From the NCBI GenBank assembly GCA_022795075.1, contig JAAWGB010000002.1:6007-70006 (forward strand): a DNA stretch of 64,000 nt, given 5' to 3'. This stretch comes from Clostridia bacterium (GTDB lineage Bacteria; Bacillota; Clostridia; TANB77; CAG-508). This document shows positions 18,876 to 20,790 of the stretch, piece after piece. The number at the start of each line of letters is the position of its first letter. The stretch's first letter is position 1. Below the pieces are notes generated by a model that was not told the origin of the DNA, searched no databases, and saw only the letters and a program-made list of their open reading frames with translations. The position numbers and the translations under genes were made by a program.

Positions 18876-19961
18876 ATGAGAAAAGGTATACAAAATTTAG
18901 AAAATACTGAAAATAGAAACTACAAAATTATCGCTGTTGATGACGAAGAAGGAATTATTGACTCTTTATCTATTTTTCTAAAAAGATCTGGTTATGAATT
19001 TACTGGTGTAACCAATCCACAAGAAGCAATTAAAAGAGTCAAAGAAGAACATTTTGACTTAATGATTTTAGACTTTATCATGACACCTTTTCATGGCGAT
19101 CAAGTAGTAGAAGAAATCAGAAAATTTAATAAAGAATTATATATCTTATTACTAACTGGTCATAAAGATTTAGCTCCTCCACTAGAAACCATTCGAAGAC
19201 TTGACATTCAAGGATATTGTGAAAAAAGTGACAAATTTGACCAATTACTATTATTAATCGAGTCTGGTATTAAATCAATTGCACAAATGAATGAAATTAA
19301 AAAAATAAATGAAGAATTAAAAAATGCTAATGAAACATTAGAAAAATCCTATTTAGAAAGTATCGAAACACTACGTTATACAGTAGAAGCAAAAGACACC
19401 TATACAAGAGGTCATTCTGACAGGGTTTCTGCATTTTCTGTCTTAATTGGTAAAAAATTAAACTTACCTGAAGAAAACTTACGAACCTTACAAATTGGTG
19501 GATTATTCCACGATATTGGTAAAATCGGTGTACCTGATAATATTTTATTAAAAGAAAGCAAACTAACAGATGACGAATATTCAGAAATAAAAAATCATCC
19601 ATCTATTGGTGCTCATATCCTATCAACTGCAACTATTTTTAAAGATATGATTCCAATTGTCAAACATCATCATGAAAGATATGATGGAAATGGTTATCCT
19701 GGCAAATTAAAAGGAGAAGAAATCCCTTATTTGGCTAGAATCACTGCTATTGCTGATAGTTTTGACGCCATGACATCACGTAGAACCTATCGTGACTCTT
19801 TGCCATTAGATACTGTTATTGCAGAATTTGAAAGATGTAAAGGTAGTCAATTTGATCCAAAACTTACTGATATTTTTTTAGATATCTTACGAAATCATTT
19901 TAATGAAATAAAAACAATTCAAGAAAAAGGAGAAAAGGAAGCAATTGGGGACGGTTCTTAA
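18876..19961 (+). CDS. Response regulator with REC and HD-GYP domains (predicted c-di-GMP phosphodiesterase, RpfG-like)
   Basis: REC: KIIAVDDEEG ... DLMILDFIM. HD-GYP: HSDRVS, LFHDIGKIGVPD, HHERYDGNGYPG. I prefer the ATG at 18876 (aaagga upstream) over the track's TTG at 18816, which is the -35 box. The last 12 codons and the stop lie inside the repeat at 19925-20040. Confidence 0.88.
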   Translation: MRKGIQNLENTENRNYKIIAVDDEEGIIDSLSIFLKRSGYEFTGVTNPQEAIKRVKEEHFDLMILDFIMTPFHGDQVVEEIRKFNKELYILLLTGHKDLAPPLETIRRLDIQGYCEKSDKFDQLLLLIESGIKSIAQMNEIKKINEELKNANETLEKSYLESIETLRYTVEAKDTYTRGHSDRVSAFSVLIGKKLNLPEENLRTLQIGGLFHDIGKIGVPDNILLKESKLTDDEYSEIKNHPSIGAHILSTATIFKDMIPIVKHHHERYDGNGYPGKLKGEEIPYLARITAIADSFDAMTSRRTYRDSLPLDTVIAEFERCKGSQFDPKLTDIFLDILRNHFNEIKTIQEKGEKEAIGDGS

Positions 19962-20040
19962 TTGCTCCTTTTTAATGTAAAAAAATAAATATTCTTAATT
20001 TCGTATCAAAAAGGAGCAATTAAGAACCGTCCCCAATTGC
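19925..20040. repeat. Hairpin repeat, copy 1 (IR-L): 33-bp perfect arms, a 34-nt loop and a 16-bp left extension
   Basis: gcaattggggacggttcttaattgctccttttt (19941-19973) has its exact reverse complement at 20008-20040. The loop is aatgtaaaaaaataaatattcttaatttcgtatc. Confidence 0.9.
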
Positions 20041-20063
20041 TATCAAATTGAAAATAGAACCTG

Positions 20064-20519
20064 CTAAGGTCCTATTTTCAATAAATGAACAAATAATATT
20101 TCGTAAGCATCATATACTATTGATATTATCGAAATAATCCAACAATAATAGGCAAGATACTTTAAAATTCCAGTTTTCCCCTCTATTCTTATATCAGGAA
20201 AAATTCCATCTGTAAAAAATACAATTTGAATATGGAAATAGATTTTACCAGCATAATACATTATTTTTTTGGTTATATAAATATCTACTATACCAAAAAT
20301 TAGGCTAATGCTGATTGCTATTCCTCCTCGCATATGCGTAAAAAAGTAATCTGATGTACCATAAAAATCATTTAAGTACCAACAATATAACGCATCCATT
20401 TGCATGGATATAATAAATGTCAAGGTATAAAGCCAAGTTTTGTATACATCTCTTGGTAATTGGTTTATCCGTTCATTCATTCTTTTTGCTAATTTTTTCA
20501 TCATTTTGGTTTCCTCCAT
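20064..20519 (-). CDS. Hypothetical small integral membrane protein (151 aa, about 4 TM), carried between the two inverted repeat copies
   Basis: The ORF has RBS ggaggaaacc upstream of the ATG. Hydrophobic helices are present (TWLYTLTFIISMQM, IAISISLIFGIVDIYI, YCWIISIISIVY). No family recognised. Confidence 0.6.
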   Translation of the reverse strand: MEETKMMKKLAKRMNERINQLPRDVYKTWLYTLTFIISMQMDALYCWYLNDFYGTSDYFFTHMRGGIAISISLIFGIVDIYITKKIMYYAGKIYFHIQIVFFTDGIFPDIRIEGKTGILKYLAYYCWIISIISIVYDAYEILFVHLLKIGP

Positions 20520-20643
20520 TATTATAATTATAATTTTTATTAGTGTCTACCTCTCCTTAGGAAAATGGAGTAGATAATAAATTAATATAAAACTATTATA
20601 GCACATTTTACATAATTTTTCAACTTTCTTCTTCCATGAAAAA

Positions 20644-20790
20644 ACAGGAGAAAAAGGAGAAAAGGGAGCAATTGGGGACGGTTCTTAATTGCTCCTTTTT
20701 GATACGAAATTAAGAATATTTATTTTTTACATTAAAAAGGAGCAATTAAGAACCGTCCCCAATTGCTCCCTTTTCTCCTTTTTCTCCTGT
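20644..20790. repeat. Hairpin repeat, copy 2 (IR-R): 57-bp perfect arms and a 33-nt loop that is the reverse complement of the copy-1 loop
   Basis: acaggagaaaaaggagaaaagggagcaattggggacggttcttaattgctccttttt (20644-20700) has its exact reverse complement at 20734-20790. The loop gatacgaaattaagaatatttattttttacatt is the reverse complement of the copy-1 loop minus one T. Confidence 0.9.

Follow-up and report, generated by a model that had tools for sequence, protein, structure and literature searches.

Why should two unrelated genes that converge on each other end in the same amino acids, the same stop codon and the same hairpin? The question is raised by a 64,000-nt stretch of a Clostridia bacterium (assembly GCA_022795075.1, contig JAAWGB010000002.1, positions 6,007 to 70,006 of the forward strand), hereafter the window, whose own coordinates are used throughout. 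In it, the open reading frames (ORFs) of an HD-GYP response regulator and of Tex run from opposite sides into two inverted copies of one hairpin element, which also bracket a gene for a small putative membrane protein. We propose that the two hairpins are, very probably, copies of a REPIN-like element, i.e., inverted doublets of repetitive extragenic palindromic (REP) units from a family that is dispersed in an uncultured clade of gut Clostridium and is associated, in related genomes, with RAYT-like Y1 (HUH) transposase genes.

The hairpin pair is real and well beyond chance. Repeat finding on positions 19500-21200 gives copy 1 inverted arms of 37 nt at 97% complementarity around a gap of 28 nt (19940-19976 and 20005-20041), and copy 2 arms of 61 nt at 98% around a gap of 27 nt (20643-20703 and 20731-20791). 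Two stretches match between the copies, one of 63 nt at 98% (19922-19984 with 20723-20785) and one of 62 nt at 100% (19980-20041 with 20667-20728). Copy 1 (19922-20041) is thereby the reverse complement of part of the copy 2 palindrome (20643-20791), and alignment of its plus strand with the minus strand of copy 2 leaves one A/G mismatch and one additional loop A. All that a preliminary description of this DNA had said about the stems, the loops and the flipped relation of the copies holds, as do the inverted repeats of about 116 bp that it saw flanking one gene. A 25-nt core, GCAATTGGGGACGGTTCTTAATTGC, occurs four times in the window, always at the Tex/HD-GYP locus, and 0.00 times in shuffles of the window. 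The predicted RNA folds reach -60 kcal/mol for copy 1 (z -11.2) and -113.3 kcal/mol for copy 2 (z -23.3). Each arm is also a small hairpin of its own, bordered by an A run and a T run, and the two units of copy 1 are separated by an AT-rich spacer of 28-34 nt. Both copies exceed this plan: copy 1 has a 17-nt extension, AGAAAAAGGAGAAAAGG, on the HD-GYP side, and the palindrome of copy 2 reaches, past a 3-nt mismatch, TTCCATGAAA on both sides (~20629-20805), so that genuine Tex codons (S-M-K) recur in inverted form in its inner arm.

Units of this kind are not confined to the window's locus. A scan of one genome per species, across 185,579 species, with the degenerate core GGGGACN{0,1}GGTN{0,1}CTTAAYTGYYYC matched 46 loci. 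Nearly all of the matches fall in three to five metagenome-assembled genomes (MAGs) of uncultured Clostridium: about 25 loci in CANEEJ01, about 15 in CAMNWO01 (the species of locus L002; L numbers are our handles for individual loci), 4-5 in CANRXN01, which has the window's subtype, and a few in other Clostridia. Most matches are inverted pairs 55-70 bp apart. A profile made from the units found 115 of them in the fetched DNA, including about 28 doublets, all in the order plus then minus. Most doublets measure 97-121 bp, with one of 83 bp and one of 246 bp, and their arms are usually 36-41 nt long and end exactly at TGAGAC...GTCTCA. Longer arms, of 51-73 nt, incorporate flanking sequence or extra half-units and are seen in a few elements, among them copy 2 of the window, L041, L047, L021 and L045. 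The spacers within doublets are homologous from locus to locus, which indicates that the doublet as a whole is the unit that spread. One orthologous site has a doublet in one genome (L032:5657-5765) and a singlet in another (L038:241-277); the difference amounts to precisely one unit with a spacer, and the direct repeat TGAGACA bounds it. This suggests that singlets arise by deletion within doublets.

The units share a layout in which an A run is followed by a stem, the apical core GGGGAC(N)GGT(N)CTTAA, the returning stem and a T run. In 22 representative units, only two of the 13 apical columns vary and 11 do not (invariant block GGGGAC.G..CTTAA.TG), and the stem covaries between subtypes: 83.8% of the cells are paired, against 74% in shuffles and at most 48% when the partner is slid, with compensatory changes at eight pairs and none of 500 shuffles reaching the observed score. 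A metagenome scan with the 20-nt core of the window, TTGGGGACGGTTCTTAATTG, returned three further contexts in which differing stems surround the identical core, namely L061:5190-5270 (contig JAEEGL015101193.1, GC 54%, an inverted doublet), L062 (36% GC) and L063 (40% GC). As judged from these comparisons, the core is conserved far beyond the stems. The apical motif of the family also recurs on a different stem in head-to-tail arrays of a 36-37-nt unit, AGGGATT-AGGGGGACGTTCCTTAA-AATCCCT, at L044 (~2440-2590), L033:5857 and L051:6768.

The relatives also provide a transposase. In L068, the contig of a Tex variant that ends in SMRDMGT, a 246-aa Y1_Tnp gene lies directly upstream of Tex, and its protein, used as a query against all fetched DNA, has homologues in L002 (at the same position by Tex), L035 and L017. 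The NCBIfam model NF047646, "REP-associated tyrosine transposase", is the best match for all four proteins and the sole match for two of them; Pfam Y1_Tnp exceeds its gathering score for both proteins tested, and a comparison of the RAYT-like protein with the sequences of the PDB gave no match. The gene of L017 (171-944) is flanked on both sides by type-A units of the family: the first, at 26-67, is what the contig end leaves of a doublet, namely its right half, and the second, at 953-993, starts 8 nt past the TAA of the gene. In L002 and L068 the gene lies between inverted hairpins that belong to sister subtypes (arms of 38 nt at 95% and of 27 nt at 93%) and share the loop motif GGGACGG. A Y1 transposase gene flanked by repeats of the family is the arrangement that defines REP/REPIN-RAYT systems (PMC3116915; PMC5581495), and here it is found in relatives only. 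At the deaminase-Tex spacer, where the window has a degenerate hairpin (Table 1), its lineage appears to have lost the RAYT-like gene.

What, then, of the gene between the two copies? The preliminary description had presented it as a complete gene of 151 aa without a recognisable family. It is complete and has no Pfam match, but the called protein has 145 aa. Its family is tiny, with three clusters at 90% identity (the window's and two others) among 5.8 billion proteins, and eight clusters (50% identity) in a profile search of 1.84 billion representatives. All homologues for which a genomic context is available lie between Tex and HD-GYP. The species of L002, whose homologue is 66% identical, has the window's order and orientation: Tex (727 aa), the small gene on the same strand and a convergent HD-GYP gene (353 aa). 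Its Tex ends in LSMKV-TGA, with a homologous hairpin (43-nt arms, 38-nt spacer) directly behind it and the small-gene promoter next; nothing lies between the terminator of the small gene and the HD-GYP stop. In a third species (L012) no hairpin follows Tex, which ends in GTT TAA with the -35 box two bases on. The promoter is kept in both relatives when these are aligned with the window.

These comparisons identify filled and empty sites. The Tex-side junctions, AAAGTT/TAAAC in L012 and AAAGTT(TGAGA...TCTCA)TAATT in L002, make a single clean pair, which lends limited support to insertion without target duplication. Copy 2, which separates the Tex stop from the promoter of the 145-aa gene, occupies the site of the homologous doublet in L002. 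Copy 1 is absent from the orthologous site in both L002 and L012 and is specific to the window's lineage. The empty sites that the preliminary description proposed to look for thus exist on both sides: on the Tex side in L012, and at copy 1 in both species. By the HD-GYP stop, L012 has 35 extra nucleotides (AATTGCTAATGGTTCTGGTTTTTAATGTAA), whose resemblance to a unit is too weak to claim. In a fourth genome (L034) the small gene is missing and a single doublet separates Tex from HD-GYP, both of which stop at the TGA of its termini. Since the small gene keeps its position and orientation between Tex and HD-GYP in two relatives that do not have the flanking pair of elements, it is a resident of the locus and not cargo, and the two elements are separate insertions or duplications.

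The same comparisons account for the shared protein ends. The HD-GYP ORF ends in EKGEKEAIGDGS and the Tex ORF in GEKGEKGAIGDGS, both with AIGDGS and the stop codon inside the elements. The S1 domain of Tex ends at residue 734 of 749, 15 residues before the end of the ORF (gene callers choose start codons later than those of the 749-aa Tex and 151-aa small ORFs). Among 120 retrieved Tex clusters, all but one of which are ~90-100% identical, the tail is found in two, the window's own and a 99%-identical strain variant (L013) whose tail, KGAGEKGAIGDGS, is one GEK unit shorter; nearly all others end in LSMKV. The tail of the window's HD-GYP protein is in none of the close HD-GYP clusters listed (~82-92% identical), most of which end in IQEKYK or a near variant, and the HD-GYP proteins of L002, L012 and L034 end in IQEKYK. 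The identical tailed HD-GYP protein is encoded on four contigs from four different sample or assembly accessions (one NCBI MAG and three Logan runs), and the tailed Tex on one further contig; unitigs and short-read contigs break within the arms, as expected for palindromes. The preliminary description was correct that two unrelated genes obtain the same tail and stop from the element, and a comparison of orthologues, as it suggested, places the tail outside the other retrieved Tex proteins, save that one variant, and outside the listed HD-GYP homologues.

How the tail comes about can be read from the ends of the units. A 3-nt linker puts the terminal TGA and the TAA of the core in one reading frame: L002 reads GTT TGA GAT AAG GGG GAC AGG TCT TAA, and the window AAG GGA GCA ATT GGG GAC GGT TCT TAA. 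Most family members have the terminus TGAGAC, the window subtype GGAGCA. This loses the stop, so both ORFs run seven more codons to the in-frame TAA in the conserved core. Any gene that enters in that frame gains (G)AIGDGS and a stop, hence the tail common to both proteins, and a one-base difference at the terminus (TGA to GGA) accounts mechanistically for one C-terminal tail on two unrelated proteins. A third ORF of this kind, in L060 (CANRXN01), ends in KKAGAIGDGS. More broadly, 37 unit ends face a gene, defined as an ORF of at least 80 codons that reads in: 19 of these genes take the TGA of the terminal TGAGAC as their stop, nine a TAA 2-6 nt upstream, four (whose proteins end in GDGS or GDRS) the TAA that lies 12 nt inside the core, and five a stop further in. 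The pattern recurs independently in L070, where Tex ends in SMKDCH and HD-GYP in IQEDCH, each entering one arm of a single doublet (L070:4640-4910) of a different subtype (stem AAAGATTGCCA, loop TTAGGGACGGACC, spacer ~170 nt). Apart from these tails, one HD-GYP homologue (P0124, on an ENA contig of 123,731 bp) has 517 aa, within which a stretch of about 165 residues, KSDKFDQV... to ...HERYDGK, is duplicated in tandem.

The preliminary description also considered a spreading structured terminator module, which is essentially right: the family is multi-copy, dispersed and palindromic, and its units are terminator-like. A consensus scan for a hairpin followed by a T run flags both units of copy 1, at 19940-19966 on the plus strand and 20041-20015 on the minus strand. 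On its own, a unit has a folding energy of -15 to -23 kcal/mol, and T5 comes after it. The gene-facing orientation gives the more stable fold in all 65 distinct units; its mean advantage over the antisense is 5 kcal/mol and is due to G-U pairs. About 70% of the elements have the 3' end of a gene within 30 nt. Given the succession of A run, hairpin and T run, the units probably act as bidirectional intrinsic terminators. Their position relative to genes is also peculiar. Of 80 unit termini, 31 have a converging stop codon between -8 and +3 nt; random intergenic positions have one in 2% of cases, about 20-fold less often. In both informative comparisons of filled and empty sites (Tex in L002 with L012; HD-GYP in L034 with L002 and L012), the element begins right where the sense codons of a full-length protein end. 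This abutment may reflect targeting or selection. A bolder version, which we regard as rather unlikely, is that REPIN-like elements are inserted by the RAYT-like transposase precisely at the boundary of last sense codon and stop, and then supply the stop themselves. They would then be mobile, translation-coupled bidirectional terminators, with GGGGAC..GG..CTTAA as the recognition signal across subtypes and across distant Clostridia, including the contig of 54% GC.

If the hairpins are REPIN-like elements, the history of the locus might be as follows. The family would spread, or would have spread, as single-stranded hairpins through the RAYT-like transposase, and its units would serve as bidirectional intrinsic terminators, insulating each of Tex, the 145-aa gene and HD-GYP from the other two. 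Hairpin-templated repair would keep the palindrome arms symmetric and at times extend them into flanking DNA, which would explain the 57-61-bp arms of copy 2. Copy 1, which is nearly identical to copy 2 even in the fast-evolving spacer, would have arisen recently from it, or gene conversion would keep the two alike. Several observations weigh against this interpretation. The 64 kb of the window hold four units, all at this locus, and the window's subtype is found at few other loci (L033, L044, L055 and L060). No RAYT gene was found in the window with the L068 protein as query. The candidate transposases score 60.8-78.4 bits with NF047646, just under its equivalog cut-off of 80; the RAYT-like gene of L002 (4697-5467) has ATA where L068 has ATG, in an otherwise open frame, which may point to inactivation or to a rare start codon, and the hairpins that flank it are of a subtype other than the abundant one. 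The units show no GTAG at the 5' foot in the alignment, unlike the REPs of E. coli and Pseudomonas. Finally, the statistics on genomic context rest on naive ORF gene models.

Several other histories would leave inverted hairpins around a gene, and the one closest to ours concerns copy 1. This copy could be a local product of copy 2, formed by a template switch or foldback at its palindrome or by recombination, with the dispersed family as the ultimate source of copy 2 only; we take this as a serious, if tentative, possibility. The two copies differ by one mismatch and one indel in 120 bp, spacer included, and the spacer differs at several positions in the strain whose Tex is 99% identical. Copy 1 also carries 17 nt of the arm extension of copy 2, asymmetrically, on one side and outside the canonical doublet; it shares the microhomology AGAAAAA with the ancestral HD-GYP end, and it lies in a window without a RAYT gene. 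The inverted Tex codons in the inner arm of copy 2 further imply that hairpin-templated copying has operated here, which counts for a local origin. However, an asymmetric hairpin with a 5' tail has also been reported for putative intermediates of REPIN transposition (PMC3116915), and an independent insertion followed by gene conversion would look alike. Copy 1 may thus have arisen by recent transposition, by local template-switch duplication or by independent insertion with gene conversion, and its sequence does not discriminate between the three.

The remaining alternatives fare much worse. Since the inverted repeats bracket exactly one complete gene and have both outer ends in coding DNA, the whole unit of 870 bp might be read as a mobile cassette, a possibility raised in the preliminary description, that has long inverted repeats as its ends and carries the membrane-protein gene. 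Yet neither the place nor the orientation of this gene differs in L002, where one side alone has an element, or in L012, whose Tex side has none; its homologues with genomic context are all at this locus, and the family otherwise consists of elements of about 110 bp without cargo. The cassette was not borne out by the relatives and is extremely unlikely. A switch, in which the 120-bp inverted repeats would make the 600-bp segment, and each loop, invertible, is somewhat less far-fetched and still very unlikely. The repeats are long and nearly identical, RecA-mediated inversion between them is physically possible, and the loop after Tex in L013 (2579-2643) reads opposite to that of copy 2; this is weak evidence, because short-read assemblers may orient the loops of palindromes arbitrarily. 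Against it, both assemblies that cross copy 1 show one orientation of the segment, as do two sister species, no recombinase gene was seen among the genes called in the syntenic neighbourhood of the relatives, and the same elements sit singly at dozens of other gene ends. The segment also holds a whole gene with its promoter and terminator, so flipping it has no obvious regulatory effect. As for a chimeric or foldback join, the breaks of short-read contigs and unitigs at the arms might raise the suspicion of an assembly artefact. This is as improbable as the cassette: several different accessions, of samples or of assemblies, yield the tailed HD-GYP and the tailed Tex, a contig from an independent MAG runs through copy 1 without a sequence difference, and homologous doublets were assembled through in relatives.

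To our knowledge, REPIN/RAYT systems have been characterised almost only in Proteobacteria. The REPIN-like family described here has much in common with them, both with the REP/REPIN-RAYT systems of Pseudomonas and Escherichia (Bertels and Rainey 2011, PMC3116915; Bertels et al. 2017, PMC5581495) and with the BIMEs of E. coli: short palindromes in tens of extragenic copies; an inverted doublet with a less conserved spacer, forming a long hairpin, as the replicating form, and singlets as decay products; clusters and nested forms; orthologous copies conserved between species; no target-site duplication seen; and Y1 (HUH) transposase genes flanked by repeats, here in relatives. It departs from them in its host, a low-GC clade of Clostridium, in lacking a GTAG motif, in being most conserved at the apical core rather than at the foot of the stem, in having several subtypes whose different stems surround a common GGGAC(R)GG motif, in the A and T runs that resemble those of bidirectional terminators, and in its strikingly frequent abutment on stop codons, which it often supplies. 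The Clostridial RAYT-like proteins also differ in falling just under the NCBIfam cut-off for REP transposases. RAYT Group 1 has been reported in Clostridia, with a weak association with repeats (PMC5581495). Our literature search found nothing on REPINs in Clostridia beyond this occurrence, and nothing relevant on the core motif.

Other small repeats were considered as well. Like the miniature inverted-repeat transposable elements (MITEs) that form terminators or protein tails, such as the Correia elements of Neisseria, the ERIC elements of enterobacteria, the RPE of Rickettsia and the QMITEs of Coxiella, the present elements are small, palindromic and non-autonomous. MITEs of this kind may end transcripts, and may add or replace C-terminal residues when they overlap the ends of ORFs. 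Such MITEs have terminal inverted repeats derived from an insertion sequence (IS) and usually target duplications (TA for Correia). Here, by contrast, no duplication was seen, and the associated enzyme is a Y1 transposase. The termini are inverted, as TGAGAC/GTCTCA, but neither the eight doublets inspected nor the filled/empty pair have flanking direct repeats, and we saw no IS with TGAGAC/GTCTCA ends, so that an IS-derived MITE was rejected. Liang, Rudd and Deutscher reportedly found in 2015 that REPs of E. coli within about 15 nt of a stop codon stall terminating ribosomes and lower expression. The present elements resemble those REPs in that a stable hairpin starts at or right after the stop codon, and differ in that abutment is the rule rather than the exception and that the element often provides the stop. 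The attC sites of integrons do not fit, since TCTTAAC/GTTAAGA or TCTTAAT departs from RYYYAAC...GTTRRRY and the copies form no arrays but lie dispersed over many contigs, where they sit at the ends of housekeeping genes; Xer/dif modules and CRISPR were rejected on similar grounds, with core sites that do not fit and copies that are dispersed rather than arrayed. An Rfam scan of 19000-21500 gave only generic long-hairpin (miRNA-precursor) matches below the gathering threshold.

A Clostridial family in which several subtypes co-exist, the units look like terminators and stop codons are favoured roughly 20-fold would offer a useful comparison system for studying how such elements choose their sites and shape the 3' ends of genes. 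Its interest would rise if the locking to stop codons proved to be a property of the insertion mechanism. At this locus, the tempting reading as a gene cassette is removed, and that as a switch is unsupported. There is also a practical consequence, because the palindromes interrupt assemblies made from short reads, and gene annotation at them will yield spurious C-terminal extensions. The features of the locus are collected in Table 1.

Table 1. Features at and near the Tex/HD-GYP locus, in window coordinates.
Feature	Position	Strand	Remarks
Element-derived HD-GYP end (GEKEAIGDGS + TAA)	19929..19961	+	ORF; in place of ancestral ...IQEK-YK-stop
Copy 1, REPIN-like doublet	19922..20041	.	Two inverted units: ~19933-19973 sense +, 20001-20041 sense -
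Terminator hairpin of the 145-aa gene	20047..20082	-	16-bp stem, stop codon in the loop; conserved in relatives; outside the repeat family
Small membrane-protein gene	20064..20501	-	145 aa as called (Met7); 151 aa from the first ATG at 20519
Promoter of the 145-aa gene, sigma-70-type	20595..20623	-	TTGAAA, 17 nt, TATAAT, TG-extended; just downstream of copy 2
Copy 2, extended-arm REPIN-like doublet	20629..20805	.	Core doublet 20660-20774; near-perfect palindrome 20643-20791; weaker pairing to TTCCATGAAA
Element-derived Tex end (GTGEKGEKGAIGDGS + TAA)	20746..20793	-	ORF; beyond the S1 domain
Degenerate hairpin ATCATGATTTTTTTAATTTCGTTCCCAAAATCATG	22993..23027	-	Between the dCMP deaminase gene and Tex; site of the hairpin-flanked RAYT-like gene in L068 and L002

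A few observations concern other sequences. In L059, two inverted units lie 2.1 kb apart, and the ORFs between them are unrelated and include no transposase. Elsewhere in the window, two intergenic hairpins, one at 26680-26785 (42-nt arms, 22-nt spacer) and one at 2785-2976 (37-nt perfect arms, 118-nt spacer), share an inner motif that was found in none of the fetched loci of relatives, AAAAAGGAAAAC[G/A]G[C/T]TCG[T/C]T[C/T]AAGTAATTTTCA; these two hairpins may represent a second family of palindromic repeats.

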